From Mycoplasmoides genitalium G37 (GTDB lineage Bacteria > Bacillota_I > Bacilli_A > Mycoplasmatales > Mycoplasmoidaceae): 32,000 nucleotides of DNA. The stretch is from contig NC_000908.2 of NCBI RefSeq assembly GCF_000027325.1, positions 210,001 to 242,000 of the forward strand, given 5' to 3'. The first letter of the stretch is position 1; the number at the start of each line of letters is the position of its first letter. Both the position numbers and the translations under genes were made by a program. The notes under the pieces are model-generated. The model was not told where the DNA came from. It was given only the letters and a program-made list of their open reading frames with translations, and ran no database searches. Shown in pieces: positions 1 through 29,826 of the stretch.

Positions 1-390
1 TTGATTAAAATTTATGCAAATACTGCGGTTAAATACCAAGGTTTTAAACCTGAAGTAGTTGCTAATAAACTAAAAAAGACCCAGTATCAAAAATCATTGT
101 CACACATCATTGCTATCCCCCATTTTTATGCAGGTAACTTCTATGTTTACAAGTATGCCATTGGCCAAGTTGCAGGTATTTTAGTAGCTAAAAAAATTAA
201 TAGTGGTGATAAAAAGATGAAAGATAATTACTTTAAATTCCTCAGTTCAGGTTCTAGTTTAGCGCCACTTGAAACCATTAAACTCTTAGGGATTGACCTT
301 ACTTCACCCCAACCCTGACAAGAAGCACATAACGAAGTAAAGCGTTGGCTTAAAATTGTGAAACAAAGCTTTAAAAAACTCCAAAAATAA
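1..390 (+). CDS. pepF: Oligoendopeptidase F (M3-family peptidase), C-terminal portion; 5' end lies outside the window
   Basis: Frame 1 is open from the window edge. ORF-track 1..318 continues through TGA 316-318 (read as Trp) to TAA 388-390. Product is assigned from the C-terminal sequence character and from the remembered gene order MG183-MG184; no catalytic motif is visible in this fragment. Confidence 0.6.
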
Positions 391-1344
391 GTGCACCATT
401 TTAACCGCGCTAAAAAGGCCAAGAATAACGAGTTTTTTACTTTAATTGATGAGATTGAAAACGAAGTAATTAACTACCAAAAGCAGTTTGCAAATAAAAC
501 CATTTTTTGTAACTGTAATGATGGTAAAAATTCCCATTTTTTTCAGTTTTTTCAAACTAACTTTAACCAGTTACAACTAAAAAAACTCATTGGGTTTAGT
601 TTTAATAATCTCTCACAAGCTGACAAGTTCACTTTTGATGGAAATAAAGTAACTAAAACCAAATTAAAGGGTAATGGTGATTTTAGTTCTGATGAATCGA
701 TTGAAGTGTTAAAACAAGCAGATATAGTTGTAACAAATCCACCCTTTAGTTTGTTTCAAAGTTTCATTGATCTGTTAATACAACACAACAAGCAGTTTCT
801 GGTTTTAGGGTTAAATGCAGCAGTTAGCTATAACCATATTTTTACCTACTTTAAAACTAACAAGTTGTGGTTTGGCTATACCGTTAATAAAACAATGAGT
901 TTTTCAGTTAACAGTGACTATCAACTTTATAACCCCAAAACTAGTAACTTTTTTACAAAAAATGGCAAGTGTTTCCAAAAGATAGCAGGTATCTCTTGGT
1001 TTACTAATTTAGGAAAACCACATTATAACCCCTTTTTAAATACCAACTGTTTTTATAAAAACAACGAAAAAAACTATCCCAAGTTTGATTGGTATGATGC
1101 TATTTATGTCAACAAGATTAAAAACATCCCTATGGATTGAAATGGATTGATGGGAGTTCCTTTAACCTTTTTAAACTGTTACAACCCCAAGCAGTTTGAA
1201 TTAGTTGATTGTCTTGCTAACCCTTATGCTACCTTAGATACATTAAAAACAAATGCCTTTGTGAAATTAAATCAGGGTGATGTGAGAAATGTTAATGGTA
1301 AAAGAAGGTATGTAAGGGTAATAATTAAAAAACAACAAATTTAG
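391..1344 (+). CDS. N6-adenine DNA methyltransferase, solitary (MG184-like)
   Basis: GTG start directly abuts the pepF stop. ORF-track pieces 391..1140 and 1147..1344 share frame 1 and are joined across TGA 1138-1140. Catalytic motif IV is visible as VVTNPPFSLF. There is no nuclease-like ORF on either side. Confidence 0.85.
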
Positions 1345-1443
1345 TTTTTTCAACATTTAACAACTCTGTTTTTACAAAAGTTAGCTTAATTTTGCTAAAT
1401 TGTTTTTTGATAGCACACTGCTGTCAACGAACCATGTTGATAA

Positions 1444-3549
1444 ATGAAATTCAAACTATTTTTTTTATCAAGCAGTGTGTTGGGTCCAATTGCCCTATTT
1501 ACAACTGCTTGTAGTGCTGTTTATAGGTTTGATCAAGTTGATGATGGCAAGATTAAACTAGCAACTGTAACTTCAGCTTCCGCTAGTGGCTCGCTTACTA
1601 CTATCATCAGTAAATATAATTCACAAAAAGATCCTAATGATTATCCAGTGGAACTGGTTTCACTTGATAGTAGGGGCAGTTATTCTAATGGCAAAAAGGA
1701 TCTGCAAGCTAAACTGCTAGCTAAGGATAAAAATAACTTTTATAACCTTACTTTTAACTATAGTGATGTAGTTTCAATCCTCTCAAGAAGCCAGATGGAG
1801 TTGAGCTTTGATACGGTTGATACTAGTAATTTTGATCCTAGTTTTCTTAGTTTTAACAATAATATTTCCAATGTTAATCCAAATAGCATCTATGCTTTAC
1901 CTGCTACTGTATCAGGTGAAGTTTTAGTTTTAAATGGACCGGTGTTACATTACATTTTAAGTAGTGCTAAAAAAGATAGTAACACCACCCTTTCAACCCA
2001 TTCAGCTAGCAATAATAGCAATAAGGGAACAATGGTTGTTGCTAGTGATAGTGAAACATCAAGTTTATGAACTAAATTAGAAGCTGCAGCAAAAATGAAT
2101 GCTCAAACTAATGAAACCCAAGTTTTAAAAAGTAATTCATCAGAATCTAACCAAACCCAAGCTAGTGATACAGAGATTAAAAAGATTTGGGGTGATTATC
2201 AAGAAGTTGATGGAGGGTTGAAAAATTACACCTTTAAAGCTAGTGTTTTTAACAATTGAAAAGACCTAAATGACTTTGCCACCAGGATTGCAAAATCCTT
2301 TACAAAACTGCAAACTACCACTAAAAAAGGGGAGGAAGTACAAGCTGTATTTGGGATTGGTAGTTTGGAAAATGCCTTATATACTGCTTTATTTGCTTCT
2401 GGAAAAGCTGATTACAATAACTTTCTTTTTAACATCAAAAACCAGCGAATTAATTTCAGTAACTTTTTTAATAAATCCTCAACTGCATTTCAAAACCTTA
2501 AAACTATCTTTAACAGCTTCAAATCCTTAATTGATCAAAACGGTTTAATCTCAAATGCACACTTTAACACCCCAGTTAATGACTATGCTAAGTTTAACCA
2601 ATTAGCTTTTTACACCTCTTCAACTGCACGCTTTCCCTATTCATTTGCAAGTGATAGTGTAAAGCGTTTAATAGTTAATGACAAGACAATTGAAAACAAA
2701 AACAATAAGAGTGTTTTTGAGGTTAATTTAAGTAGTGATAGTGATAACAACAGTAACCTAATTGGTACTGTATCACTGGAAAATAGTAAACAAGTTTCAC
2801 TCTATGAAAAGCAAGTGGATAGTAATAAACAAATTGGTGTTGATGCTTTGTTAATCAAAGATGAAACTTTAATCAACCATCTTAAGAGTTTAAAATCGCA
2901 AGTTAGTGCAAAAAGTGCTAGTGAAACTTCCCAAACAAAACAAAACAAAACCTTTTTAGCATTTACAACTGTGAATGCAGATCAAAAAGCAATCTTTGAT
3001 GTTGGTAAACTTAATGGCAAAACTGCCAAAATCATTATTAATGCTACTGAAACAACTAATGCTAAGATTAGCACCTTACAAGAAAAAGAGGCAATAGTTC
3101 TAAAAGCACCCCAACGCTTTGAGAGCACTGATCCATTTCCTATTGCTTTAGTGCAAGGTCCTAGTTTAATAGGGATCCATGCAAATGAAAGAGAGGATAT
3201 TGAAACCAAAAAGTTTGTGAATTGGTATCTGAATACTAAAGTCCAATGGGAAGAAAATTCTATTAAAACTCCTGCAGAATATGTAGCTGATAAAGCTTCT
3301 TATCTTTTACCTTTTAAAAATAGGCTAAATAATACTAACAGTTACAATGAGTTTGTTAAAACTGCAGTTAGTCAGTTTGCTGATAAAAATGTAACTAAAT
3401 TTGCAGAACCTGCTGATTTTTTATCCAACAAAGTACGTGATGGTGTTAAGAGTAATTTAAATGCTGCAATTAACAACCACAGCATTGATTTTGATAGTTT
3501 TATCAATGATTTAACAGACTATCTTGGTAGTGATGTTAAAAACATCTAA
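1444..3549 (+). CDS. Membrane lipoprotein of unknown function (MG185-like, 701 aa)
   Basis: Signal peptide plus lipobox ([23 protein letters not shown]). Frame 1 is continuous through in-frame TGAs at 2068-2070 and about 2257-2259, linking ORF-track 1444..2070 to 2365..3549. Ends at TAA 3547-3549. Confidence 0.8.
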
Positions 3550-3555
3550 TAATTT

Positions 3556-5832
3556 ATTCCCCCAACCTCTATTTTCTGTTACTAGTGCCTAAGGTGGTAG
3601 TGGAGTATCACAACCTGAATAACCAAGTAGTCAAAGAGAGTTTGGAAGTGGAATCTTCTTCCTCTTTCAACCCCACCCAAAGGTTGCAAAAAGATAGTCC
3701 GGTGAAGGATTCAAACAAAGACAGTGAGAAACTCGAAACAACTGCTTCATCGATGAGTAGTGGGGCTACATCTCCTCGCAAGGCCCTTAAGATAGAGGTG
3801 GAGAAAGGCAGTAATGTCAATCAAGGCGAACTAGCAAAAAACGACTTTGCTAAAAAGCCACTGAAACATAAGAACAGTAGTGGGACAGAGGTGAAGTTAG
3901 CTGCGAATGGGGAGTTTGCAGGAGACAAGGCCTGAAAACCATTGTTGACTACCGAGCAAATAAAAGATAATAGGGGGATGGGGGCTTTCTCCAACTCCCC
4001 CTCCCCTTCAACTTCCGCTTCCTCAACCCCCCTCCCCACTTTTTCTAACATCAATGTTGGGGTTAAATCAATGATCACTCAACATTTAAATCAGCAAAAC
4101 ACCCGGTGGGTGTTTATACCTAACTTTTCACCTGACATCTGAACAGGAGCAGGTTATAGAAAAGCTAATAACAACAATAACGGCATTCCTTTTGAACAGG
4201 TGAAACCTAGCAATAGTAGTCAACAGTTTAATCCCAATTCAGATGATAATAAAGTCACTCAAGGTGGTGGCTCCCCAGCCAAAAAAACAACGTATGACAA
4301 TTTACCAAACTCCATCAGTCCCACCAGTGACTGGATCAACGCATTGACTTTTACTAATAAGAATAACCCGCAGCGCAATCAACTGTTGCTCAGAAGCTTA
4401 CTAGGAACTATCCCGGTCTTGATCAATAAGAGTGGAGGAAGTGGGAATGAGTTTACCCATACGAGTGAGCAGAAGTGGGATAAAACGAATGAAAAAGATG
4501 GGAATTTACCTGGGTTTGGGGAGGTGAATGGTGGTTTTATTATGTTTTTATCAAATCTTTATTTACTTTAATAGTTAAAAAAGTTTTGAATTTTTCTTAG
4601 TTTTTTATTTGTTTAATATTTAAGAAAGTCTCAAATTTTTATCAGTTTATTGGTCAAAGAAGTCGCAAATTTTCTTAATTTATTTATTCAATAGTTAAAA
4701 AAGCGTTAGGTTTTTCTTAGTTTTTTTATTTGTTTAATATTTAAAAATTTCTTGATTTTTATCCTTAATTTAATTAATAAAACCTTTACCCCTATTATCA
4801 CAAACCATCCATAACACCAACCTGTTTGTGTTGTTCAAGTCTAGGGATGTAAAAGTTAAGTATGAGTCAAGTGGCAGTAACAACATTAGTTTTGATTCAA
4901 CTAGTCAAGGTGAAAAACCATCCTATGTGGTCGAGTTTACTAACTCTACCAACATTGGCATCAAGTGAAGCGTGGTGAAAAAGTATCAGTTAGATCTACC
5001 AAATGTTACCAATGAGATGAACCAAGTGTTGCAAGAATTGATCCTAGAACAACCCCTTACCAAGTATACCTTAAACAGTAGTTTGGCTAAACAAAAGGGT
5101 AAAACCCAAAGGGAGGTGCATCTCTCAAATTCAAATCAGTGACAATCGATGCGTAATCAACATGACCTAAACAACAATCCCAGCCCCAATGCTTCAACTG
5201 GATTTAAATTAGACAAAGGCAATGCATATAGAAAACTAAGTGAATCCTGACCAATTTACCAACCAATTGATGGGACCAAGCAGGGCAAAGGGAAGGATAG
5301 TAGTGGGTGGAGTTCAACAGAAGCAACAACGGCAAAAAATGATGCGCCCAGTGTTTCTGGAAGTGGAACATCAGACACCGCTTCAAAATTCAAAAGTTAC
5401 CTCAACACCAAGCAAGCGTTAGAGAGCATCGGCATTTTGTTTGATGGAACAACGGCGAGGAATGTGGTTACCCTCCTTCCTCTACTTTCAACCCAACAAG
5501 GTGAAAAGTGGTCAATATCAACAAAATAACACCTACAACAAGTTAATTGAACCGGAAAGTGCAACAAGTGCAGCGAGCAGCATGACCAACTTGTTAAACA
5601 TGTTGTCTAGTAAAAACATCAAACAGAAGTTGGGGAAGGGGGGAACAGCAATGCAGGGAAGTTTCAGTGTCCAAGACACCTTCAGCTTTGTTGTTCCTTA
5701 TTCGGGGAATCATACAAATAGTGGAACAACTGGACCCATTAAAACTGCTTATCCGGTGAAAAAAGATCAAAAATCAACTGTCAAGATCAATTCCTTGATC
5801 AACGCTACGCCGTTGAATAGTTATGGGGATTT
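3556..5832 (+). repeat. MgPa repeat archive 1 (by genome position probably MgPar4): silent mosaic of mgpB and mgpC segments
   Basis: By-eye alignment to the expression site: 3556-3985 matches mgpB 12156-12585 (B); 3985-4531 matches 13896-14446 (EF); 4532-4800 is an AT-rich spacer; 4801-5445 matches mgpC 16108-16755; 5470-5660 matches mgpB 14872-15057 (G); 5661-5832 matches mgpC 17271-17445. Same orientation as the operon, with clustered substitutions and indels. There is no ATG or signal peptide context. Confidence 0.9.
4532..4800. repeat. AT-rich spacer of archive 1 containing a 120-bp tandem duplication of a ~49-nt motif
   Basis: AATAGTTAAAAAAG..TTTTTCTTAGTTTTTTATTTGTTTAATA occurs at 4570-4618 and 4690-4739. 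Both ends are conserved with the spacer of archive 2 (GGTTTTAT.. on the left, TTAATTAATAAAACCTTTACCCCTATTA on the right). Confidence 0.8.
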
Positions 5833-5920
5833 AAATAATCACACCAAGTTAATTTACCCAAATTATTTACTTATTTATTAACCATTGTTACCCAATTTTT
5901 CAACCACTTCCCCACTCTAT

Positions 5921-5943
5921 AAATTGTTATTTTTTAACAATTT
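5921..5943. promoter_or_regulatory. Perfect 9-bp A/T palindrome (AAATTGTTA-TTTTT-TAACAATTT) upstream of the nuclease/ABC genes; possible operator, function unknown
   Basis: Read directly from the sequence. A second partial palindrome CAATTT..AAATTG follows (5938-5957). A/T-rich -10-like hexamers lie at 5969-5984. It is not followed by a T-run, so it is not a good terminator. Confidence 0.2.
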
Positions 5944-6015
5944 GAACAATTAAATTGCAAAAAATAACTATATTAATGTAAATTTAGCTAACAAGCTTAA
6001 CTGGTTGTTTTTGAG

Positions 6016-6768
6016 ATGAAAGGGTTTTTAAAACCAAATTTCTCGCTCGGTGCTTTGTTTTTAACTTTAAGCCCCATAGCCACTGCATGCATTGCTGAAA
6101 AACCAGTTAACAACCGCTTTAACTTTAATAGCGAGCAATTAGCTAGGCTAAGAAAAGCAAGGGTTAACCACTGAAGAGATGGGGATACTTTGGAAGTTAG
6201 CTTTGCAAATAACCACCAAAAACCGATCCGTATCTATGCCATTGATACCCCTGAAAAAGCAGTTTTATCTATACAACGCAAATCAGAGATAGAACTTAAA
6301 GAAGCTAATAAAGCAACTGAGTTTGCCAAAAGCTTAATTCCCATTGGTAGTGAGGTGTGGATCTGACCACTAAATAGCTATAGCTATGATCGTGAAGTAG
6401 CTGCAGTGTTTTTCAAAACCAATCCATTGCAACTGCACTTTGAATCGTTTGCAGTTGAAATGGTAGCAAATGGTCATGCTTTACCTATTGCTGGTAATGA
6501 CTTTGATTTTGTTTTTAGTGATTTGGACCCATTTAATCCCCTAAAAATAGTAGGGATTGAACTAGCTAATGGTTTAAACAATGCTTTTAACAACAGAAAA
6601 AACATCTTTAGTTATTTAGAAAACAGTTTTCAATCAATAACAATGGTCTATCAACAACGCGGTGTTGACCAAAGTTGAACAAGGTATTTAGCTCCTAGTA
6701 ATGATTTTTCCTCTACTAAACTGGGGTTGGGATTAACCATCTATGAATTGAAACTAAACAATGGCTAA
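6016..6768 (+). CDS. Staphylococcal-nuclease-fold membrane lipoprotein nuclease (MG186-like)
   Basis: ATG 6016. Lipobox LSPIATAC. SNase motifs are visible in my translation (RDGDTLEV...IRIYAIDTPE). Frame 1 is continuous through TGAs (e.g. 6676-6678) to TAA 6766-6768. It overlaps the next gene by 8 nt (ATGGCTAA). Confidence 0.85.
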
Positions 6769-8518
6769 CAATAAGAGTGCAATTGAGTTGAAAAACATCG
6801 TTGTTGATTTTGGTGAATCAGTTGCGATTGACAACATTAACCTTAGTGTTGAAAAACACCAACTAGTTAGCTTACTTGGTCCTAGTGGTTGTGGTAAAAC
6901 CACTACACTTGCAGTTATTGCAGGACTTATTAAACCAACTAGTGGTCAGGTGTTATTTAATGGTTATGATGTCACCAAAAAACCACCCCAAGAACGTAAA
7001 CTAGGGCTAGTTTTTCAAAACTATGCACTTTATCCGCACATGAATGTGTTTGAAAACATTGTTTTCCCCCTCTACAGTGATAACTCGTGAAAACAAGCAG
7101 TTTTGGAAAAAAACAGTGTTGCAAACCATGAGATTAACTGTTTGTTACTTACTAGCAACGGTGCATCAGTTCAAGAGATTGATCAGCTCAATAAGTTATT
7201 TCATGATAGTATTGAAAAACCCAAACAGATCCAATACCAAATTAATGACCTTAATGTTAGTGTTTTTAAAAACTTAAATGAACTAACTGCAAACCTTAAG
7301 TTAATACCAAGTAAGCACCAGTTTGCTATTACCAATCTCAACAAACAAACTCTAAAACAGATTAATGAACTGGAAGCTGAGTTTAAAACAAAGTGAAAGT
7401 TACAAAAACAAACCCCAATTAAGAGTGGGGTTGAACACAATGCCAAACTCCAAGCAATTAAACAACACTTTAGTTATGAAAAACAACGGTTAAAAAAACA
7501 CTATTTCAAAACTAAAGTGGAACTAAAACAAACCCTTGTTGAAAACCTTAAGTTAGTTAAAAAAGCGATTAGTGAACAAACTAAGTTAATTAAACAGAGT
7601 AGTGATTACACTAAGTTAAAGCAATTAAAACGGTTAATTAAAGTTGAACCTAACCAACTCAAAAAACAATATAAGGTTTTTCTCAATCAGTTAATTAAAA
7701 ACTATTCACTTAAAACTGATAAGTTAACTGATACTCAACTTAATGAAATTGAACAGATTAAAACCAGAATTGTTTCAATAAAACAGTTTATCAACAAAAC
7801 TGCACTTGAAGTAGCTAACAAACTAGCGATTACCAAGATTTTAACCAAACGCCCTGATAAGATTTCTGGTGGACAACAACAACGCGTAGCAATTGCTAGA
7901 GCAATTGTCAGAAGACCTAAACTATTGTTAATGGATGAACCACTCTCTAACTTAGATGCAAAGCTAAGGGTACAGACAAGACAGTGGATCAGACAGTTTC
8001 AACAGGAGTTACAAATTACCACTGTTTTTGTCACCCATGACCAGGAAGAAGCGATGAGTATTAGTGATGTCATTGTTTGTATGTCAACTGGAAAAGTGCA
8101 GCAAATCGGCACACCCAGTGAACTTTATTTAAAACCTGCTAATGAGTTTGTTGCGCGCTTTTTAGGCACCCCTGAGATGAACATCATTGAATGTAGTGTC
8201 AAAAACAACCAGTTGTTTTGAAACAACCATCTGTTAGTTACTGAGAGTTTTAAGCTTAATGTAGAGAAACTCTTAGTTGGGTTTAGGTATGAACAACTAG
8301 TGGTCACTACTAACAAAAGTAGTTTGCAAGCTAAACTAATTAACATTGAAAACTTAGGTAAACACTTAGTTGCTACCATTAGTTTGTTTGATACCACCTT
8401 ATCAATGCGCTTAGAATTGAATAGCCACTTAAAAGTAGGTGATAGTTTAAATTTCATTATTAAAGCTAACAACCTCCATTTTTTTGATATTGATACAAAA
8501 CAACGGATTGAGATTTAA
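6761..8518 (+). CDS. ABC transporter ATP-binding subunit, MalK/UgpC type, with a large internal insertion (MG187-like, 585 aa)
   Basis: Four ORF-track pieces (6761.., 7103.., 7517.., 8300..8518) all lie in frame 2 and are joined by in-frame TGAs. Walker [11 protein letters not shown]-loop [12 protein letters not shown], signature ISGGQQQR, Walker [13 protein letters not shown] and H-loop VTHDQ are present, plus a C-terminal regulatory-type domain. Confidence 0.9.
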
Positions 8519-8520
8519 CA

Positions 8521-9510
8521 ATGTTTAAGTGGTTATTAAAACATCATAATCAACCTCATAGCCTCCAGTTAGGGTTACTAGACCAACCATTACCGTTCTG
8601 AAAGCCCTTTTTGTTGTTCCTCCCTGCGCTTTTAACAACAATTTTGTTTACCATTATCCCCTTCTTTTTAAGCTTACAGAAGGGTTTTAGTGCTAACAGT
8701 GATCTGTATGATCTCTCCTCCCAATCCTTTAGTTTACGAACCTTTCAGGATCTGTTTAGTGAATCTAACTTTGTGTTGGGCTTACGCAATAGTTTTCTCT
8801 ATTCACTAATCTCTTTACCCTTTAGCATTATCATTGCTATTGTTATTGCCAGTGCCATAGTATTTGTGTACAAAAAATTGTTAAGAGGGTTTTGACAGAC
8901 CGTGTTTTTTTTACCCTATGTAACTTCAGGGGTGGCAATCTCGATTGCCTTTGTATATATCTTTGATTCTGCCTCTGGTATTTTAAACACGGTGTTTAAT
9001 GTCAACACCAAGTGGCTTGATTCAGGTTCACGTGATACATTTAATGCCTTGTGGGCTATCTTAATCTTTGGGGTGTGGAAAAACTTGGCATTTAATGTGT
9101 TGATTATCTCAACAGCAATGTTAAGTGTTAATCCCCAACTTTACAAGGTAGCAAGTTTAGATAGTGCCAATCCTGTAAGACAGTTCTTTAAGATTACTCT
9201 TCCCTCCATCCGTCCTACTTTAATCTTTCTTACTACCCTTTTAATCTTAGGGGGGATGCAAGTCTTTCCGCTGGCTTTGTTTGAAAACAAACCTGAAGAA
9301 GCGGTTGCTAATGGGGGGAATAGTATCTTGCTTTACATCTTTCAACAGATCCAAAGTGGCAATACTAACTTAGCAGGTGCTGCTACTTTAGTGTTGTTTG
9401 TGTTGGGAGTTTGTTATGGGTTAGTGTTACGTAATGGCTTTTATCTGATTGAATGGTTGCAGTGAAAAATTAAACAGCTTTATGTTCAAAAACAACTTAC
9501 GCTTTACTAG
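8521..9510 (+). CDS. ABC transporter permease (MG188-like, UgpA/MalF family)
   Basis: ATG 8521, 2 nt after the ATPase stop. Frame 1 runs through TGAs at 8599-8601, 8893-8895 and 9463-9465 to TAG 9508-9510. Multiple hydrophobic helices and an EAA-type loop (KVASLDSANPVRQFFKITLP) are present. Confidence 0.85.
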
Positions 9511-10438
9511 TTGAATTAATCAACACAAGTTTTACCAACTTGATCTGAGCTTAAAAACCCGCTCGATCAAACAAATTGTTTTAACGTTGGTTTTCAAAAC
9601 ATTGGTATTGGGGTTTTTTGGGTTAATTGTCATCTTTCCCTTTTATCTGATGGTTGTGGTTAGTTTTGCTAGTGATGAAAGAGCATTAGACACAAGAACC
9701 CCAATCCTTTGACCTGATAGTTGAAACTTTGATAACTTTAGTAGGGTGTTAAGTGATGGGAAATATCTCAATGCAATAGTTGTCAATACTTTAGTAACGG
9801 TACTTTCAGTGTTACTAACATTGTTTTTTACCATTTGCATGGGTTATAGTTTTTCACTACGGAAGTGAAAATACAAAAAACTGGTGTGGTTTTTCTTTCT
9901 TAGTGTGTTAATACTGCCTGAGTCTGCGCTTTTAATTGGTCAGTATCGGATTGTAATAGTTGCTAACTGAAATAACCCCAACAGTCCCTTGATTGTTCTG
10001 GGACTCATTATGCCCTTTGTTAGCAGTGTTTTTAGTGGGTTTATGTACCGTACTAGCTTTGAAGCCATTCCATCTCAATTAAAAGAGTCAGCACTCATTG
10101 ATGGGTGTAATGGCTTTAACTACTTTTTGAAGATTGCTTTACCAATGGTGAAATCTACCAGTTGAACAGTGGGGATTTTAACTGCATTTAGTGCTTGAAA
10201 TTCCTATTTATGACCATTACTGTTGTTGGGCAACAGGGTGGATTTAAACATTAACTTGTGGGTGTTACAACAAGGGATCTTGGATGCTAACAGTAGTGAT
10301 GAACAGATCAGAACGCTGTTAAATCTCAAGATGAGTGCAGCGATTCTAGCTATCCTTCCGATGTTTATTATCTACTTTTTGTTCCATAAAAGGATTATGA
10401 ATGCCATTAAAAACAGAGCCAACACCATTAAGGGTTAA
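9482..10438 (+). CDS. ABC transporter permease (MG189-like, UgpE/MalG family)
   Basis: ATG 9482 overlaps the previous gene by 29 nt. Frame 2 stays open through many TGAs to TAA 10436-10438. EAA-type loop ESALIDGCNGFNYFLKIALP. Confidence 0.85.
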
Positions 10439-10439
10439 T

Positions 10440-10598
10440 ATGCAAAAGTTTAAACAACTGGTTGGTGCAATGCACAGATGGGTAAAACTAGCACTATTAG
10501 TAATCATTGTGTTATTAGGGATTATCTTTTGTCTGTTTGCCATCTATGACATTGCGCAAGTGATCATTACCATTATCAATGAAGGGGCACTTTTATAA
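10440..10598 (+). CDS. Candidate 52-aa single-pass membrane peptide (hypothetical)
   Basis: ATG 10440 lies 1 nt after the permease stop; TAA 10596-10598 lies 8 nt before mgpA. Sequence is MQKFKQLVGAMHRWVKLALLVIIVLLGIIFCLFAIYDIAQVIITIINEGALL, i.e. a basic N-terminus followed by a long hydrophobic helix. It exactly fills an otherwise empty gap, but I recognise no homology. Confidence 0.3.
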   Translation: MQKFKQLVGAMHRWVKLALLVIIVLLGIIFCLFAIYDIAQVIITIINEGALL

Positions 10599-10599
10599 T
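10594..10599 (+). promoter_or_regulatory. Consensus TATAAT -10 box immediately upstream of mgpA
   Basis: TATAAT at 10594-10599 with the mgpA ATG at 10607. The 7-nt gap predicts a leaderless or near-leaderless transcript. Sequence match only. Confidence 0.35.
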
Positions 10600-10606
10600 C
10601 TTTGTT

Positions 10607-11563
10607 ATGAAAAAAGGATCAATAACTGAAGCAATTAATGCCATTAAACAATTTGATAAGATTGTTATCTTTCACCATGTGCGCCCTGATGGGGATTGTT
10701 TAGGAGCACAACAAGGCTTGTTTCACCTCATTAAAGCTAACTTTAAAAATAAGGAGGTGAAGTGTGTTGGTAATAACAACAACCTGTTTAGCTTTATCAA
10801 CATGACATTTACCAACCAAATTGATGAGAGCTTTTTAAAAGAAGCACTTGCCATTGTGGTCGATGCTAATTACAAAAACAGGATTGAATTGAGAGAACTG
10901 TTAGATAAAAACCTGTTTAAAGCAGTGTTAAGGATTGATCACCATCCCAATGAAGATGATCTAAACACTAGCTTTAACTTTGTTGAAGAAAGCTATGTAG
11001 CTTGTTGTGAGCAGATAGTGGAGATGGCCACAGTGGCGAAGTGGACCATACCACCAGTGGCTGCTACTTTACTATATATAGGTATCTATACGGATAGTAA
11101 TAGATTTCTATATAGTAATACATCATATAGAACACTATACTTAGCAGCAATACTATATAAAGCTAAAGCTGATATAAGGATAGTACATGATCATTTAAAC
11201 CATACTAGTTTAGCAGATCTTAAGTTTAAAAAGTATGTTTATAACCACTTTAAAACCCAAGGACAAGTGATCTATTTTATCTGTACTAAAAAGATCCAAA
11301 AGAGACTAAGAATGACTGCAGATCAATGTGCTAGAGTTAACTTGTTAAGTAACATAGCAGATTACAAGATCTGACTTTTCTTTATTGAACAAGCTAATAA
11401 TGAGATCAGGATAGAACTGAGGAGTAATGGGATTAATGTCAGAGATATAGCCATTAAGTATGGTGGGGGAGGACATAATAATGCAAGTGGAGCGATCATT
11501 ACTAACAAAAAACAAATTAGTGATGTTGTTAGTGATTGTGTGAAAAAAATTGTTTATAATTAA
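10607..11563 (+). CDS. mgpA: DHH/DHHA1-family phosphoesterase (NrnA-like), first gene of the MgPa operon (MG190)
   Basis: Motifs HHVRPDGDCLGA, VVDAN, RIDHHPNED and YGGGGHNNASG. Frame 2 continues through TGA 11372-11374 to TAA 11561-11563. Confidence 0.9.
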
Positions 11564-11569
11564 GTTTGT

Positions 11570-14500
11570 ATGCACCAACCAAAGAAAAGACTGGCTAAGA
11601 AGTCTTGAGCCTTTCTAACCGCTGCACTTACCCTTGGGGTTATAACAGGTGTAGGTGGTTATTTTCTCTTTAACCAAAATAAGCAACGTAGTAGCGTGAG
11701 CAACTTTGCTTACCAACCCAAGCAGTTAAGTGTTAAACACCAACAAGCAGTTGATGAAACCTTAACCCCTTGGACTTGAAACAATAACAACTTCTCTTCA
11801 CTAAAGATTACTGGAGAGAACCCAGGATCATTTGGATTAGTAAGAAGCCAAAATGACAACTTAAATATTTCAAGTGTTACAAAGAATTCTAGTGATGATA
11901 ATCTCAAGTATCTCAATGCTGTTGAGAAATACCTTGATGGTCAGCAAAACTTTGCAATCAGAAGGTATGATAACAACGGTAGAGCTTTATATGATATTAA
12001 CTTAGCAAAAATGGAAAACCCCTCAACGGTGCAAAGGGGTTTAAATGGCGAGCCTATCTTTGATCCTTTTAAAGGCTTTGGTTTAACTGGTAATGCCCCT
12101 ACTGATTGGAATGAGATCAAAGGTAAAGTTCCAGTAGAAGTAGTTCAATCCCCCCATTCCCCCAACCTCTATTTTGTGTTACTAGTGCCTAAGGTGGCAT
12201 TAGAGTATCACAACCTGAATAACCAAGTAGTCAAAGAGAGTTTGGAAGTGAAAGCAACCCAATCATCCTTCAACCCCACCCAAAGGTTGCAAAAAGATAG
12301 TCCAGTGAAGGATTCAAGTAAACAAGGGGAGAAACTCAGTGAAACAACTGCTTCATCCATGAGTAGTGGTATGGCTACATCCACTCGAGCCAAGGCCCTC
12401 AAAGTGGAGGTGGAAAGGGGGAGTCAAAGTGATTCACTTTTAAAAAACGACTTTGCTAAAAAGCCACTAAAGCATAAGAACAGTAGTGGGGAGGTGAAGT
12501 TAGAGGCAGAGAAGGAGTTTACTGAGGCCTGAAAACCATTGTTGACTACTGATCAAATAGCAAGAGAGAAGGGGATGGGGGCGACGGTGGTTAGTTTCTA
12601 TGATGCACCCTACAGTGAAAACCATACTGCCTTTGGACTTGTTGATCACATCGATCCTAAAAAGATGGTTGAAAACTACCCACCAAGTTGAAAGACCCCG
12701 AAGTGAAACCACCATGGGATCTGGGATTACAACGCAAGAAACCTCTTGTTACAAACAACAGGGTTCTTTAACCCAAGAAGACACCCGGAGTGGTTTGATG
12801 AAGGACAAGCTAAGGCAGATAACACTAGCCCTGGCTTTAAGGTAGGGGATACTGATCACAAAAAAGACGGGTTTAAAAAAAACTCTTCTTCTCCAATAGC
12901 TTTACCATTTGAAGCATACTTTGCTAACATTGGTAACATGGTTGCTATTGGTAACTCGGTATTTATCTTTGGTGGTAATGGTCATGCTACTAAGATGTTT
13001 ACCACCAATCCCTTAAGTATTGGGGTATTTAGGATTAAATACACTGATAACTTTAGTAAGTCATCAGTAACAGGTTGACCATATGCAGTGTTATTTGGGG
13101 GATTAATTAATCCCCAAACCAATGGCTTGAAAGATCTTCCCCTTGGTACCAACAGGTGGTTTGAATATGTACCAAGAATGGCAGTTAGTGGGGTGAAATG
13201 GGTTGGTAATCAACTAGTGTTAGCAGGAACACTAACAATGGGTGATACAGCTACTGTACCTAGGTTAAAGTATGATCAACTAGAAAAACACTTAAACCTA
13301 GTTGCTCAAGGCCAGGGACTATTGAGAGAAGACTTGCAGATCTTCACTCCCTATGGGTGAGCTAATCGTCCTGATATTCCTGTAGGAGCATGACTCCAAG
13401 ATGAAATGGGCAGTAAATTTGGTCCCCATTACTTCTTAAATAACCCTGATATCCAGGACAATGTTAATAATGATACGGTTGAAGCATTAATCAGTAGTTA
13501 CAAAAACACTGATAAGTTAAAACACGTTTATCCTTATCGATACAGTGGTTTGTATGCTTGACAGTTATTTAACTGGTCTAACAAACTAACCAACACTCCC
13601 CTATCAGCTAACTTTGTTAATGAAAACAGTTATGCACCAAACAGTTTGTTTGCTGCTATCTTAAATGAAGATCTGTTAACAGGGCTAAGTGATAAGATTT
13701 TCTATGGTAAGGAGAATGAGTTTGCTGAAAATGAAGCAGATAGGTTTAACCAACTTTTAAGTTTAAATCCTAATCCTAACACTAACTGAGCTAGGTATTT
13801 AAACGTAGTACAACGTTTTACTACCGGACCTAACCTTGATAGTTCTACCTTCGATCAGTTCTTAGACTTTCTCCCCTGAATCGGCAATGGTAAACCCTTT
13901 TCCAACTCCCCCTCCCCTTCAACTTCCGCTTCCTCTTCTACCCCCCTCCCCACTTTTTCTAACATCAATGTTGGGGTTAAATCAATGATCACTCAACATT
14001 TAAATAAAGAAAACACCCGGTGGGTGTTTATACCTAACTTTTCACCTGACATCTGAACAGGAGCAGGGTATCGCGTTCAAAGTGCTAATCAGAAAAACGG
14101 CATTCCTTTTGAACAGGTGAAACCTAGCAATAATAGTACCCCCTTTGATCCCAATTCAGATGATAATAAAGTCACACCATCAGGTGGCTCCTCCAAACCA
14201 ACCACCTATCCTGCTTTACCCAACAGTATCAGTCCCACCAGTGACTGGATCAATGCATTGACTTTCACTAATAAGAATAACCCGCAGCGCAATCAACTGT
14301 TGCTCAGAAGCTTACTAGGAACTATTCCGGTCTTGATCAATAAGAGTGGGGATAGTAATGATCAATTTAACAAGGATAGTGAGCAGAAATGGGATAAAAC
14401 TGAGACAAATGAGGGTAATTTACCTGGGTTTGGGGAGGTGAATGGGTTGTATAATGCCGCATTACTCCATACCTATGGTTTTTTTGGCACCAATACCAAC

Positions 14501-15904
14501 TCTACTGATCCTAAGATAGGTTTTAAAGCTGATAGTAGTAGTAGTAGTAGTAGTACACTAGTAGGTAGTGGGTTAAACTGAACTAGTCAGGATGTAGGTA
14601 ATCTTGTTGTAATCAATGACACCAGCTTTGGGTTTCAACTTGGTGGTTGGTTTATTACCTTCACTGACTTTATCAGACCAAGAACTGGTTATCTAGGGAT
14701 TACCTTAAGTAGCTTACAAGATCAAACCATTATCTGAGCAGATCAGCCTTGAACTAGTTTCAAAGGCAGTTATCTAGACAGTGATGGTACCCCTAAATCA
14801 CTGTGAGATCCAACTGCTTTAAAATCCCTTCCAAATAGTTCAACTACCTATGATACCAATCCTACCCTCTCACCCTCCTTCCAACTCTACCAACCCAACA
14901 AGGTGAAGGCTTACCAAACCACTAACACCTACAACAAGTTAATTGAACCAGTTGATGCAACAAGTGCAGCAACTAACATGACCAGTTTGTTAAAACTCCT
15001 AACAACTAAAAACATCAAAGCGAAATTGGGGAAGGGAACAGCTTCTTCGCAGGGAAATAATAATGGAGGGGGTGTTAGTCAAACGATTAACACCATCACC
15101 ACTACGGGAAATATTAGTGAAGGTCTAAAAGAAGAAACTAGTATTCAAGCAGAAACACTTAAAAAGTTCTTTGATAGTAAACAAAACAATAAGAGTGAAA
15201 TAGGGATAGGTGATAGTACATTTACCAAGATGGATGGTAAACTAACTGGCGTAGTATCTACTCCCCTTGTTAACCTTATCAATGGCCAGGGAGCAACTAG
15301 TGATAGTGATACTGAAAAAATTAGCTTTAAACCTGGTAACCAGATTGACTTTAATAGGTTATTCACCTTACCAGTAACTGAACTATTTGATCCTAACACG
15401 ATGTTTGTCTATGACCAGTATGTACCACTATTGGTTAACTTACCTAGTGGCTTTGATCAAGCTTCAATCCGCTTAAAGGTAATTAGTTACTCAGTAGAAA
15501 ACCAAACCTTAGGAGTTAGATTAGAGTTCAAAGATCCTCAAACCCAACAGTTTATCCCGGTACTAAATGCATCAAGTACAGGTCCCCAAACTGTCTTTCA
15601 ACCCTTTAACCAGTGGGCAGACTATGTCTTACCTTTGATTGTAACTGTTCCTATAGTAGTGATTATCCTTAGTGTTACTTTGGGATTAACGATTGGAATT
15701 CCAATGCACAGAAACAAAAAGGCATTACAAGCAGGGTTTGATCTTTCTAACAAAAAGGTTGATGTCTTGACCAAAGCAGTTGGTAGTGTCTTTAAAGAGA
15801 TCATTAACAGAACAGGGATCTCTAACGCTCCTAAGAAGTTAAAACAAGCTACCCCAACCAAACCAACTCCTAAAACCCCACCAAAACCTCCAGTAAAACA
15901 ATAA
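11570..15904 (+). CDS. mgpB: MgPa major adhesin P140 (MG191, 1444 aa)
   Basis: ATG 11570, 6 nt after the mgpA stop. All ORF-track pieces (12011.., 14117.., 14903..15904) lie in frame 2 and are joined by TGA codons, giving 1444 codons. N-terminal signal/TM segment, C-terminal TM helix and a Pro-rich tail ([16 protein letters not shown]). Internal segments recur in both archives. Confidence 0.97.
12156..12585 (+). repeat. mgpB repeat region B (expression-site copy)
   Basis: Aligns by eye with 3556-3985 and 19455-19864. Conserved edges (TACTAGTGCCTAAGGTGG ... GGGATGGGGGC) flank a variable core. Confidence 0.85.
13861..14446 (+). repeat. mgpB repeat region EF (the part covered by the two archives in this window)
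   Basis: Aligns with 19865-20436 and, from 13896 onward, with 3985-4531. Both archives end at the same point (GGGGAGGTGAATGG). Confidence 0.85.
14534..14554 (+). repeat. (AGT)7 trinucleotide microsatellite encoding Ser7 in mgpB
   Basis: Counted directly: gat (agt)x7 aca. The protein reads [13 protein letters not shown]. Confidence 0.95.
14872..15057 (+). repeat. mgpB repeat region G (expression-site copy)
   Basis: Aligns with 5470-5660 and 21266-21460 (ACCCTCCTTCC...CCCAACAAGGTGAA...GGGGAAGGGAACAGC..CAGGGAA). Confidence 0.8.
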
Positions 15905-15905
15905 G

Positions 15906-19067
<3,162 letters not shown>

Positions 19068-19088
19068 TTTTTAACCTTTCAATAACCT

Positions 19089-19130
19089 AAAACACAATCT
19101 TTAAAACAAGGTTGTGTTTTTTTGTTTTTT
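19089..19130 (+). terminator. Rho-independent terminator of the MgPa operon
   Basis: An 11-bp stem pairs 19089-19099 with 19110-19120 (one G-U pair) around a 10-nt loop, followed by TTTGTTTTTT (19121-19130). It lies 22 nt after the mgpC stop. Confidence 0.7.
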
Positions 19131-19167
19131 GTCACTTTTCACTAAACTTGCAATTTAGAGAGTGGAT

Positions 19168-19335
19168 ATGAAAAGAACAGTTAAAAAAATAAAACCTGAC
19201 CACTTGTTTAATAAAAAGCAGTGGCACTTACTGAGTGAAGAGATCAGTGATAACCCAATGATTAAGCGTTATTGACTCAAACAACAAAAGCGTCAGCTTG
19301 CCAAACTAAAAAAACGCCGTTATTTTAAAAATTAA
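19168..19335 (+). CDS. Candidate 55-aa highly basic micro-protein (hypothetical)
   Basis: ATG 19168 to TAA 19333-19335 with one in-frame TGA (Trp). Sequence is MKRTVKKIKPDHLFNKKQWHLLSEEISDNPMIKRYWLKQQKRQLAKLKKRRYFKN. It is missing from the ORF track because of the TGA and its size. No homology recognised. Confidence 0.25.
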
Positions 19336-19337
19336 CT

Positions 19338-19439
19338 ATGTATTCTACTTTAAGACAATATAAACCATTGAAAAGAAAGAAATGGTTAAACAAGATCTCA
19401 AAACGGAAGTTAAAACAACTTTATAACAAAGCTTATTAG
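19338..19439 (+). CDS. Candidate 33-aa highly basic micro-protein (hypothetical)
   Basis: ATG 19338, 2 nt after the previous stop, to TAG 19437-19439. Sequence is MYSTLRQYKPLKRKKWLNKISKRKLKQLYNKAY. It shares a W-L-x(3-4)-K-R-x-L-x-x-L pattern with the preceding micro-ORF. Confidence 0.2.
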   Translation: MYSTLRQYKPLKRKKWLNKISKRKLKQLYNKAY

Positions 19440-19454
19440 TTTTGTTTTTTATTT

Positions 19455-21617
19455 TTACTAGTGCCTAAGGTGGTATTAGAGTACCACAAGCTCAGTAAGG
19501 ATGTAGTCAAAGAGAGTTTGGAAGTGGAAGCAACTGATTCTTTTGATCCCACCCAAAGGTTGCAAAAAGATAGTCCAATGAAGGATTCAAGTAAACAAGG
19601 GGAGAAACTCAGTGAAACAACTGCTTCATCCATGAGTGGTATGGCTACATCTCCTCGCAAGGCCCTTAAGATAGAGGTGGAGAAAGGTTCTTCAGGGTCT
19701 GACACCCTCACCAAATCCGACTTTGCTAAAAAGCCACTGAAACATAAAGAAAATAGTGGGACAGAGGTGAAGTTGGATGCACAGAAGGATTTTGCCGGAG
19801 AGAAGGCCTGAAAGCCATTGTTGACTACTGATCAAATAGCAAGAGAGAAGGGGATGGGGGCGACTTAGACTTTCTCCCCTGAATCGGCAACAACAAACCC
19901 TTCTCCAACTCCCACACTGCTTCCCTTTCTGTTAGTTCAAATACCCCCCTCCCCACTTTTTCTAACATCAATGTTGGGGTTAAATCAATGATCACTCAAC
20001 ACTTAAACAAAGAGAACACCCGGTGGGTGTTTACCCCTAACTCTTCACCTGACATCTGAACTGGGGCTGGGTATCGCAAACAAGGTAACAATAATGGCAT
20101 CCCTTTTGATAATGTGAAACCTAGCAATAGTAGTACCCCCTTTAATCCCAATTCAGATGATAATAAAGTCACTTCAGGTGGCTCCTCCAAACCAACCACC
20201 TACACCCATTTACCCAACAGTATCAGTCCCACCAGTGACTGAAGCAATGCATTGACTTTCACTAATAAGAATAACCCGCAACGAAATCAACTGTTGCTCA
20301 GAAGCTTACTAGGAACTATCCCGGTATTGATCAATAAGAGTGGAACGGGAGATCAATTTAACAAGGATAGTGAGCAAAAATGAAACGAAACAGATAAATT
20401 AGGAGGCAACCTCCCGGGGCTTGGGGAGGTGAATGGCGGTTTTTATCAACTAAATAAAAACTTATTAGCTTATTTTTATTAGGTTTTTACTTATTTAATA
20501 GTTAAAAAAGTTTTGAATTTTTCTTAGTTTTTTATTTGTTTAATAGTTAAAAAACACTAGGCTTTACCTTTATTTAATTAATAAAACCTTTACCCCTATT
20601 ACCAAACCATCCATAACACCAACTTGTTTGTGTTGTTCAAGTCCAAGGATGTGAAGCTTACATATAGTTCAAGTGGCAGTAACAACATTAGTTTTGATTC
20701 AACTAACAACAAACCCTCCTATGTGGTCGAATTTACTAATTCCACCAATGTTGGCATCAAGTGAACGATGGTGAAAAAGTATCAGTTAGATGTACCGAAT
20801 GTTTCTAGCAACATGAACGATGTACTGAAAAATTTAATTCTTGAACAACCCCTTACCAAGTATACGCTTAATAGTAGTTTGGCTAAAGAGAAGGGTAAGA
20901 CACAAGTAGCGGTACATCTGGGTAGTGGGCAAGCAACTAATTGACGATCGATGCGCAACTCCATCAGTCTAAACAACAATCCCAGCCCCAATGCTTCAAC
21001 TGGGTTTAAATTAGACAAAGGCAATGCATATAGAAAACTAAGTGAATCCTGACCAATTTACCAACCAATTGATGGGACCAAGCAGGGCAAAGGGAAGGAT
21101 CAAGCGAATTGGAGTTCAACAGAAGAATCAACGGCAGCTAGTGATGCGCCCCTAAGTACAGGAGGGGGATCATCTTCTGGAACATTTAATAAATACCTCA
21201 ACACCAAGCAAGCGTTGGAAAGCATCGGTATCTTGTTTGATGGGGATGGAATGAGGAATGTGGTTAGCCTCCTTCCTCTACTTTCAACCCAACAAGGTGA
21301 AAAGTGGTCAATACCAAACCACCAACACCTACAACAGGTTAATTGAACCTGACAAGTGACAATCAAATAGTGATTTGACTAACATGACCAGCTTGTTAAA
21401 ACTCCTAACAACTAAAAACATCAAAGCGAAATTGGGGAAGGGAACAGCAATGCAGGGAAGCAAGACACCTTTTCCTTCGTTGTTCCTTATTCAGATAGTC
21501 ATAGTAATCAAACTTCATCAGGAACCATTAAAACGGCTTATCCTGTGAAAAGTGATCAAAAATCATCAGTAGCGATCAATTCCTTGATCAACGCTACGCC
21601 GTTGAATAGTTATGGGA
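19455..21617 (+). repeat. MgPa repeat archive 2 (by genome position probably MgPar5): silent mosaic of mgpB and mgpC segments
   Basis: By-eye alignment: 19455-19864 matches mgpB 12178-12585 (B); 19865-20436 matches 13861-14446 (EF); 20437-20602 is an AT-rich spacer; 20603-21242 matches mgpC 16108-16755; 21266-21460 matches mgpB 14872-15057 (G); 21461-21617 matches mgpC about 17285-17445. Same block order as archive 1. Confidence 0.9.
20437..20602. repeat. AT-rich spacer of archive 2 carrying the same ~49-nt motif as archive 1
   Basis: 20497-20545 is identical by eye to 4570-4618. A second partial copy starts at 20542 (AATAGTTAAAAAACACTAGG, compare 4690-4710). Confidence 0.8.
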
Positions 21618-21626
21618 CAATAAAAA

Positions 21627-21655
21627 AACTACCTGTCAACAAAAAACAGGTAGTT
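21627..21655. terminator. Perfect 10-bp hairpin at the right edge of archive 2; terminator-like, stronger on the minus strand
   Basis: AACTACCTGT (21627-21636), a 9-nt loop, then ACAGGTAGTT (21646-21655). The minus-strand reading is followed by TTTTTTTATT; the plus-strand reading by the weaker AATTATTTAT. Confidence 0.45.
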
Positions 21656-22008
21656 AATTATTTATCCAATTAGTAAGTTGCCTATGGGTTAACAAAGAGA
21701 TGCACTTAATATACGACCAACCTAATTTATTTGAAAGCGTATCTTTTATTAATGAATGTGGAACTAAGCAACTATTATTTAAACACAGCAAAAGCGTGTA
21801 ATTTTTTATTAAAAGCGATTTAGTGGGAACAGAAATAAAAGATTAACATGACTTTATACAACTTCTGTTCCCATCTACTAAATTGCACAAAAAAAGCTTT
21901 TTGACAAAAAAATAGTTATTTTTTGTAATTGCTTAATTTAATAACAAACTAAACTATTATTGTTACTTAATGATTTTTTGATCTATATAGCACAATTAAT
22001 ATAACTTC

Positions 22009-23034
22009 ATGATTGATCAAAACAAGTTAATTACTAAGTGAAAAAAAGCATTTGCAAAAGCTAAGAATTTAACTACTTTAGTTAATCTTAAGAACACTTT
22101 ACACAACAGTGATTTAAAGCCATTACTCCAAAAGATTAAAACCGCTACAAAACTAAGTGAAAAAAGTAGTTTAGGTAAGCTTTATCAATCACTTGATATT
22201 CAACTAACTGATCTGTTAACTAGTTACAAAAAAACCTTTGAAATAAATAACCAAGTTAGTCAAAAACCTTCACTTGATGTGATGCTACCAGCAACAGAGT
22301 TTACCAATGGTTCTAATAACGCACTATATCAGGTTATTGATAATTTAGTTGAATACTTTAAAAGCTTTTTATTCACAATTAATTTTGATAGTGAACTGAC
22401 CAGTATTAGTGACTGTTTTGATCTTTTAAATATCCCTAAAGATCATTCCAGTAGGAATGAATCTGATTCTTTTTATATCGATAAAACCAGTTTATTGAGA
22501 ACCCATTGTACTGCTACCACGCTAAAAGCAGTCAGAACTTCTAAAAAAACTAATAATCCTGATATCAGGGTTGTCTCTTTAGGAGCGGTTTTTCGTAATG
22601 ATAGTGATGATGCCACCCACTCCCATCAGTTTACCCAACTTGATTTTATGTGGATTAAAAAAGGGCTTTCATTAGCTAATTTAAAGTGGTTTATTAACAA
22701 TATGATCACCCATTTCTTTGGGGAAAATACTTTTACTAGGTTTAGACTATCCCACTTCCCATTCACTGAACCCTCGTTTGAAATTGACATTAGGTGTTGG
22801 TTATGTCAAAATGGTTGTTCTATTTGTAAGCAAACCAAGTGAATTGAGATCTTAGGGGCGGGGATCATCCATCCCCAGGTGATGAATAACATGGGAATTG
22901 GGGATACTGAAAATATTACTGGGATAGCAGCAGGAATTGGGATTGAACGCTTAGCAATGTTAAAGTATGGGATTGATGATATCCGTGATTTTTATGATAA
23001 CAACTTTAAGTTTTTAACCCAGTTTACTGACTAA
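22009..23034 (+). CDS. pheS: Phenylalanyl-tRNA synthetase alpha subunit (341 aa)
   Basis: ATG 22009. Frame 1 runs through TGAs (22039-22041, 22840-22842) to TAA 23032-23034. Class II aaRS core is visible ([41 protein letters not shown]). Confidence 0.95.
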
Positions 23035-23037
23035 AAT

Positions 23038-25458: not shown

Positions 25459-25516
25459 AATTACTTATTACTATCAAGATAGTTACCAACTATTTTGTTA
25501 GTAAAACTTAATACAA

Positions 25517-26062: not shown

Positions 26063-26064
26063 TT

Positions 26065-26244
26065 ATGAAAACCAAAAGTGCTGCAGTAAAACGCTTTAAA
26101 CTCACCAAATCAGGACAAATTAAGCGCAAACACGCTTATACTTCCCACCTCGCGCCCCACAAATCAACCAAACAAAAGCGCCATTTGCGCAAGCAAGCTA
26201 CTGTGAGCAACAGTGAATTGAAAAGAATTGGTATTTTAATTTAG
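26065..26244 (+). CDS. rpmI: Ribosomal protein L35 (59 aa)
   Basis: Hand-translated because it is below the ORF-track size cutoff: [59 protein letters not shown]. It lies 2 nt after the infC stop, in the canonical infC-rpmI-rplT order. Confidence 0.9.
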
Positions 26245-26246
26245 TT

Positions 26247-29817: not shown

Positions 29818-29826
29818 TAACAACTT

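Follow-up and report, generated by a model that had tools for sequence, protein, structure and literature searches.

In Neisseria (pilE/pilS), Borrelia (vlsE/vls), Treponema (tprK) and Anaplasma (msp2), one expression site is accompanied by silent partial cassettes, and segmental homologous recombination between them gives rise to mosaic surface antigens; it is described as unidirectional gene conversion that leaves the donors unchanged. Mycoplasmoides genitalium likewise combines one expression site, for its MgPa adhesins, with partial donor archives termed MgPar, a comparison made by Ma 2007 (PMC2169797), but there the exchange is often reciprocal, such that the archives change too, and the archives are conditionally transcribed from σ20 promoters. 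Here, we follow up this system in a stretch of 32,000 nucleotides from strain G37 (NC_000908.2, positions 210,001 to 242,000; the window, in whose coordinates all positions are given), in which the mgpA–mgpB–mgpC operon lies between the archives MgPar 4 (upstream) and MgPar 5 (downstream). Through this locus, a pathogen with a genome of 580 kb escapes antibody and persists, and its mgpB gene serves as the standard typing target.

The MgPa/MgPar system was described by Peterson in 1995, Iverson-Cabral in 2006 and 2007, Ma in 2007 and 2010, Burgos from 2012 to 2018 and Torres-Puig in 2015 and 2018. Locus and mechanism are already known and established experimentally in G37, and we found no differences between the published system and the window: strain, coordinates, block architecture, AT-rich spacers and partial open reading frames (ORFs) are the same, exchange is both reciprocal and non-reciprocal, MgPar 5 mediates deletions, and the σ20 transcripts, orf192.1 among them, are shared. 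The closest known system outside the species is that of Mycoplasma pneumoniae, whose P1 (MPN141) and ORF6 (MPN142) are orthologous adhesins that share the P1_N, Adhesin_P1_C, MgpC and MGP3_C domains (PDB matches 6rc9 and 6rj1). Its RepMP2/3, RepMP4 and RepMP5 elements are likewise dispersed truncated donor copies, although the repeat families differ, and the species also encodes an orthologue of σ20 and carries, downstream of its adhesin genes, a σ20-type promoter (MPN143; PMC6105099). Its relation to the archive frames studied here is distant (36–42% protein identity), and its variation is less frequent according to the literature. To this background we add an in silico reciprocal exchange between mgpB and MgPar 4 in two public assemblies, and we correct two points of an earlier annotation of the same DNA made from its letters alone (the original prediction): the archives are neither collinear with the operon nor transcriptionally silent.

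With a probability of roughly 97%, we consider the locus to be the MgPa adhesin-variation system, comprising the mgpA–mgpB–mgpC expression site and the donor archives MgPar 4 and MgPar 5. In this interpretation, the archives are truncated, in-frame variant copies of regions B, EF and G of mgpB and KLM of mgpC that have no adhesin promoter, and homologous recombination swaps an archive block with the matching region of the expression site, often reciprocally and sometimes by gene conversion. According to published experiments this needs RecA and RuvAB, and the alternative sigma factor σ20 (MG428) activates it in a few cells, the outcome being an altered surface-exposed adhesin sequence and hence antigenic variation. 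As the repeats are direct, a single crossover with MgPar 5 deletes 4.2–7.3 kb and leaves a truncated chimeric adhesin, an irreversible non-adherent phase variant. The review PMC9262362 supports the dependence on RecA, RuvAB and MG428 (citing Burgos 2012, 2014, 2018), and PMC4446450 and PMC6105099 support the role of σ20 in recombination. Our own analysis shows the anatomy, the maintenance of reading frames, the mosaicism, the hypervariability among strains and one mgpB/MgPar 4 exchange; enzyme and sigma-factor dependence, phenotypes and deletions are taken from the literature. No evidence contradicts this interpretation; there are caveats, which we weigh below.

One adhesin operon between two truncated archives

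Genes were called with translation table 4 (TGA read as tryptophan); table 11 fragments every gene, and table 4 fuses the fragments into three adjacent plus-strand genes (10478/10607–11563, 11570–15904 and 15906–19067). The first operon gene, mgpA (MG190; 10607–11563), belongs to the DHH/DHHA1 phosphoesterase family (Pfam PF01368 and PF02272); its longest ORF begins at 10478, and the start at 10607 is that of the 318-aa gene call in genome GCA_054926295.1. It is followed by mgpB (MG191, the P140/MgPa adhesin; 11570–15904), which encodes 1444 aa with 16 TGA-Trp codons, carries P1_N and Adhesin_P1_C domains and is matched along its full length by PDB 8pbx_B, and by mgpC (MG192, P110; 15906–19067), which encodes 1053 aa, carries MgpC and MGP3_C domains and matches 8pbz_A over its full length. 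By code-4 ORFs, Pfam and PDB, a full-length operon encoding P140 and P110 is present. That there is only one per genome, which a 32-kb window cannot show, is stated in PMC9262362.

Ungapped repeat finding and gapped self-blastn across the window both revealed that five plus-strand segments of the operon, namely mgpB regions B (12156–12585), EF (13861–14456) and G (14872–15057) and the two mgpC KLM regions (16108–16755 and 17271–17445), recur at 3556–5830 and 19455–21616. The self-blastn alignments have 75–97% identity and E-values from 1e-29 to 0, all are plus/plus and are therefore direct repeats, and neither method found comparable repeats elsewhere in the window. This reproduces what the original prediction had claimed, which was the recurrence of each of these segments in both flanks and in the same orientation, and the comparison of the window against itself that it had proposed as a check yields alignments far above background.

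Within MgPar 4, 3556–3985 aligns with mgpB 12156–12582 (81.3%, E = 2e-115), 3987–4544 with mgpB 13898–14456 (85.5%), 4801–5446 with mgpC 16110–16755 (86.6%), 5470–5649 with mgpB 14872–15042 (75.4%) and 5670–5830 with mgpC 17284–17444 (96.9%). The corresponding blastn matches of MgPar 5 join 19455–19864 to mgpB 12179–12585 (82.6%), 19864–20436 to mgpB 13861–14445 (85.0%), 20601–21242 to mgpC 16108–16755 (84.9%), 21268–21448 to mgpB 14874–15042 (81.0%) and 21461–21616 to mgpC 17286–17441 (80.1%).

Because published primers map at the exact offset (4F3, 4R1, 5F4 and 5R2 all lie at their published G37 coordinates minus 210,000), the two repeat regions can be identified as MgPar 4 and MgPar 5 of strain G37. 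All primers published for MgPar 4, MgPar 5 and MG192 (PMC2169797, PMC3004944) were found in the window, and the MG192-homologous ranges of Table 3 in Ma 2007 (PMC2169797; MgPar 4 1258–2287, MgPar 5 1159–2174) fit 4801–5830 and 20604–21619. The position of the expression site, between MgPar4 upstream and MgPar5 downstream, is as published (PMC5745988), and another G37 assembly, CP159789.1, has 0 differences from the window over 16247–32000.

Delimited by blastn, code-4 blastx, stop counts, GC content and primers, the upstream donor archive MgPar 4 spans 3556–5832 (+), with blocks B (3556–3985), EF (3987–4544), spacer (4545–4800), KLM1 (4801–5446), G (5470–5649) and KLM2 (5657–5830). By the same evidence the downstream donor archive MgPar 5 spans 19446–21617 (+), with blocks B (19446–19864), EF (19864–20461), spacer (20462–20602), KLM1 (20601–21242), G (21266–21449) and KLM2 (21446–21617). 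In code-4 blastx, both share the order B–EF–[AT-rich spacer]–KLM1–G–KLM2, and the blocks cover MgpB residues ~196–339 (B), ~765–977 (EF) and ~1102–1163 (G) and MgpC residues ~55–325 (KLM1) and ~452–513 (KLM2). In both archives collinearity with the operon is lost, as the mgpB G block sits between two mgpC blocks, a known feature (PMC5745988) that was missing from the original prediction.

The distances given there hold: MgPar 5 starts 388 nt past the mgpC stop (19067 to 19455, with protein-level homology beginning at 19446), and MgPar 4 ends about 4.8 kb before mgpA (4.78 kb to the ATG at 10607, 4.65 kb to the longest-ORF start at 10478). The interval between MgPar 4 and mgpA (5832–10478) holds four unrelated genes, which had not been mentioned.

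Every archive block has 0 stops in its adhesin-homologous frame, compared to 1–29 in the other frames, and frames stay open for up to 343 codons; stops delimit the blocks, which do not share one frame. Pairwise indels between copies are multiples of three in 40 of 46 cases. The spacers have a GC content of 0.17 (MgPar 4) and 0.18 (MgPar 5) and 3–5 stops in each frame. By blastx, the blocks have no adhesin N-terminus, no membrane anchor or transmembrane segment and no C-terminal tail. The archives had been described as truncated and without a start codon or signal-peptide context; truncation and the missing signal-peptide context stand, but the absence of a start codon is too strong, as in-frame GTG and ATG codons exist in the archive frames.

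A 45-nt unit, TTTAATAGTTAAAAAAGTTTTGAATTTTTCTTAGTTTTTTATTTG, is repeated 2–3 times in the AT-rich spacers of both archives (4545–4763 and 20449–20580), and for one of these units the identity between MgPar 4 and MgPar 5 is 97%. The core of the spacer is maintained from strain to strain, with neighbouring blocks varying by 7–30%. A site-specific invertible or shufflon-type switch was considered and rejected: all repeats of the locus are direct, and there is no recombinase among the ORFs of the span. The sole inverted pair that repeat finding detected in the window (40 nt, 75%, 25130/27595) is unrelated to the locus.

Exchange within the window and between genomes

For each block, we aligned the three copies in the window, classed the informative sites by which pair of copies agrees and compared the number of runs with 5000 shuffles. 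The informative sites fall into long alternating runs, and the observed run count was reached by 0 of 5000 shuffles for B, EF, KLM1 and G and by 7 of 5000 for KLM2. For exchange with MgPar 5 the signs are indirect: runs in which the expression site agrees with MgPar 5 but not with MgPar 4 extend over up to 19 informative sites, and repeat finding revealed two near-identical tracts between the operon and MgPar 5, one of 71 nt (99%) and one of 61 nt (98%). Judged from these alignments, alternating runs are a mosaic pattern that rate variation alone cannot produce.

A direct view of exchange comes from genome GCA_054926295.1 (CM142907.1; hereafter genome X), whose locus (L001) spans window positions 1–14571, that is, the upstream half only. 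It provided a 96% identical match (P0001) in a protein search with the MgPar 4 B+EF frame; this search, aimed at full-length MgpB variants bearing archive sequence, otherwise returned mainly archive ORFs of other genomes. Over 14.6 kb, genome X is 99.18% identical to the window; the 121 columns that differ all fall within repeat blocks, in five clusters. Region B of its mgpB carries the MgPar 4-B tract of the window without any difference, down to four 3-nt indels, and over the 3′ ~130 nt its MgPar 4-B tract is the same as the mgpB-B of the window. On this comparison, the mgpB-B/MgPar 4-B difference between the two genomes is a reciprocal exchange, with a small non-reciprocal patch at its left boundary. 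The 5′ ~30 nt of the MgPar 4-B tract of X (L001 10055–10100, corresponding to window 3654–3700) are of MgPar 5 type and not of mgpB type, which implies an earlier transfer from MgPar 5 to mgpB or an exchange between archives; in G37, the 5′ sub-tract of mgpB region B is GCAACCCAATCATCCTTCAAC. Further differences lie in MgPar 4 KLM2, where two substitutions in X are to the mgpC state, and in mgpB-EF, where X carries a new tract.

The interpretation of the flanks as donor archives is thus supported by open homologous frames, mosaic runs and the reciprocal mgpB-B/MgPar 4-B swap with GCA_054926295.1, and it gains from variation across strains. Ten further genomes are among the rplT matches listed; leaving out CP159789.1, which is identical to the window, nine were used for divergence. 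Per 100 nt, they differ from the window by 0.1–0.2 in the housekeeping flank, 0–2.6 in the terminator/orf192.1 segment, about 0–2 in the AT spacer (with one genome at 10.6) and 7–30 in most archive blocks and the mgpC KLM regions, the exception being MgPar 5 KLM2 with 0–1.8 in seven of the nine. MgPar 5 of other genomes contains exact tracts of 45–127 nt that equal the mgpB, mgpC or MgPar 4 of the window and differ from the window's own MgPar 5 by anything from several to more than 20 edits. Such tract sharing would be as expected if all sites draw on one sequence pool. Frame disruptions of mgpC, within its variable region, were seen in two of these genomes: GCA_054926515.1 switches frame once near the Ser repeat (L002 ~919–928), and across KLM1 GCA_036785455.1 passes from frame 3 into frame 2 and then returns to frame 3 (L007 173–684). 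Either natural phase variants or assembly errors may explain them.

Some observations limit the reach of the donor-archive interpretation. Ancestral polymorphism could account for part of the mosaic runs and of the tracts that strains share. The reciprocal exchange comes from one public assembly (CM142907.1, probably long-read) and its upstream half, and the MgPar 5-like 5′ ~30 nt of the MgPar 4 tract in X need more than one event. Reciprocity could be followed for mgpB-B/MgPar 4-B only; among the ten downstream loci there is no closely related pair in which MgPar 5 reciprocity could be followed, as all pairs differ by at least 489 columns. Finally, the window holds two of the nine archives, and the mgpB-EF tract of X matches neither MgPar 4 nor MgPar 5 of the window, which places its donor elsewhere in the genome.

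Deletions by crossover between direct repeats

The original prediction had also held that the direct-repeat geometry permits deletion between the expression site and an archive. For MgPar 5 this agrees with simulation and literature: simulated single crossovers delete 4.2–7.3 kb and leave chimeric truncated ORFs of 325–1198 aa, and they match the published class I (mgpC-KLM × MgPar 5) and class II (mgpB × MgPar 5) deletions, which are irreversible phase variants according to PMC9262362. For MgPar 4 the claim is carried by simulation only, with 8.6–11.3 kb deleted and a nuclease gene, three ABC-transporter genes, mgpA and the operon's 5′ end lost; we found no reports of MgPar 4-mediated deletion variants in the literature, and selection may act against them.

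Conditional transcription of the archives

The archives had been called silent. This is correct for adhesin protein only, as three σ20-dependent transcripts with mapped start sites have been reported from the two (PMC6105099) and matching motifs are present in the window. According to that study (Torres-Puig 2018), ncRNA-1 runs antisense over G and KLM of MgPar-4, ncRNA-2 covers orf192.1 and the B and EF blocks of MgPar-5, and ncRNA-3/4 lie in MgPar-5. A scan for the σ20 motif (TTGTCA-N18/19-ATTWAT; PMC4446450) found six sites in the window, compared to 2.3 ± 1.4 in simulations, and recovered the two candidates from Table 1 of Torres-Puig 2015 (PMC4446450) where they were expected, at 97–127 (upstream of MG_184) and 27287–27317 (upstream of MG_200). 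A scan for σ70 promoters gave 34 sites compared to 50 expected from shuffles and is therefore uninformative on archive silence; Mycoplasma promoters, moreover, have no strong −35 element.

Downstream of the operon, a terminator-like hairpin at 19089–19120 (+), with a 13-bp stem followed by a T-run, begins 22 nt past the mgpC stop (fold −13.5 kcal/mol, z = −3.2); it is identical in 10 of 10 other genomes and separates the operon from MgPar 5. It is followed by a σ20 (MG428)-type motif, TTGTCA-N18-ATTTAG, at 19129–19158 (+), which is probably the published ncRNA-2 promoter and lies directly upstream of orf192.1 (19168–19335, +). The latter, between the mgpC terminator and MgPar 5, encodes a 55-aa basic protein (MKRTVKKIKPDHLF...), is 56/56 identical in 10 of 10 other genomes and is called as a 55-aa gene in nine loci. 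It is the σ20-dependent ORF whose reporter was on in 0.54% of cells (PMC6105099).

On the far side of MgPar 5, a second σ20-type motif, TTGTCA-N18-ATTTAG at 21878–21907 (−), is convergent with the first, such that the two bracket the archive. Both share TTTTTTGTCA and GCAATTTAG at equal spacing, with 19–20 bases in common, and their hexamers are invariant in the ten other genomes. The 21907 (−) element is followed by a hairpin at 21818–21873 (−; 13 bp, z = −4.0) and, just outside the KLM2 end of MgPar 5, by a terminator-like hairpin at 21627–21655 (−; 11-bp stem then T-run; fold −15.6 kcal/mol, z = −5.5), which is exactly conserved in 8 of 10 other genomes. A transcript from this motif to the hairpin at 21627–21655 would be ~250 nt long. 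The element may be one of the published ncRNA-3/4 promoters, and with two stable hairpins downstream it might belong to the regulon as a member that is under-described.

Next to MgPar 4, a candidate σ20 promoter with two mismatches, TTGTTC-N19-ATTTAT at 5919–5949 (−), points leftward into KLM2–G–KLM1. Over the extended −10 region, CAATTTATAGAGTGG, it agrees with the 19129 site at 14 of 15 positions, and we infer that it fits the promoter of the antisense ncRNA-1. Further σ20-like motifs at 4773–4803 (−) and 20577–20605 (−), with one and two mismatches, occupy the homologous AT-spacer/KLM1 junctions and are oriented antisense into the spacer and EF. Conditional promoters are therefore present at the archives and complete secreted proteins are absent; the original prediction had regarded archives having both as irreconcilable with a donor role.

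Alternative explanations

The alternative that survives best takes the transcripts as the point of the archives, which would also, or instead, be σ20-induced regulatory RNA genes whose antisense products silence mgpB and mgpC during recombination. The antisense orientation of ncRNA-1 to G and KLM favours this idea, which its authors proposed (PMC6105099), as do the σ20-type motifs found beside both archives, which do not vary across 11 genomes (window included). The function is, however, purely proposed, the same authors finding the transcripts ‘puzzling’, and it leaves open frames and observed exchanges unexplained, so that it could be an additional function at most; we regard it as unlikely. 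A similarly doubtful idea, compatible with donor archives, is that σ20-driven transcription of the archives may be required for exchange, by opening or marking the donor for RecA or by choosing the archive; the elements involved would be the convergent 19129 (+)/21907 (−) pair and the antisense promoter by MgPar 4.

The reciprocal exchange could be an assembly or polishing artefact between paralogous repeats. Genome X is probably a long-read assembly (CM1429xx accession series; Oxford Nanopore M. genitalium study PMC12852374), and repeats are error-prone regions. Yet the swapped tracts are ~130–190 nt long, comprise ~28–31 discriminating columns, the four 3-nt indels among them, and are exact mirror images at two sites separated by 8.6 kb, with the other 14.4 kb identical, and paralogues of 85% identity are easily separated by reads of kilobase length. 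An artefact is thus very unlikely.

Slightly more improbable still is that the archive ORFs constitute an independently expressed family of adhesin-like proteins and not silent cassettes. Besides the in-frame GTG and ATG codons, gene callers annotate proteins of 54–326 aa in the archives, and the σ20-dependent ncRNA-2 spans B and EF of MgPar 5 in sense orientation (PMC6105099). Such proteins would nonetheless lack a signal peptide as well as a membrane anchor and a C-terminal domain; the frames of the blocks differ, are bounded by stops and are split by a stop-filled spacer, most archive ORFs have no Pfam domain, and the authors of PMC6105099 treat the transcripts as non-coding except for orf192.1.

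That the archives are decaying duplicated pseudogene fragments without a donor role, as truncated, non-identical copies devoid of N-terminus, transmembrane segment and C-terminal tail might be, is already effectively refuted by the open frames (up to 343 codons with 0 stops in the homologous frames, in a genome of 32% GC with stops every ~17 codons) and the reciprocal swap of X with mgpB, and is further opposed by indels in threes and by a divergence of most blocks between strains ~100× the background, next to a conserved spacer and flanks.

Further features of the window

Perfect AGT/TAG trinucleotide arrays occur in mgpB (14533–14555, 7.7 units) and mgpC (17129–17166, 12.7 units); they are the known length-variable serine repeat, and genome X has one additional unit in mgpB. 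Both mgpB and mgpC end in C-terminal tails that are paralogues of each other (15752–15816 compared to 18852–18916, 71% over 65 nt), and PDB cross-matches relate MgpB residues 1301–1443 to MgpC residues 886–1032 (E = 4e-15). An Rfam scan of 3000–22500 found no family above threshold. Outside the locus, tandem repeats of 42–57 nt at 27953–28147 encode a Pro/Glu/Ala-rich stretch inside a DnaJ-like gene (27347–29152), the MG200 homologue with an EAGR box.

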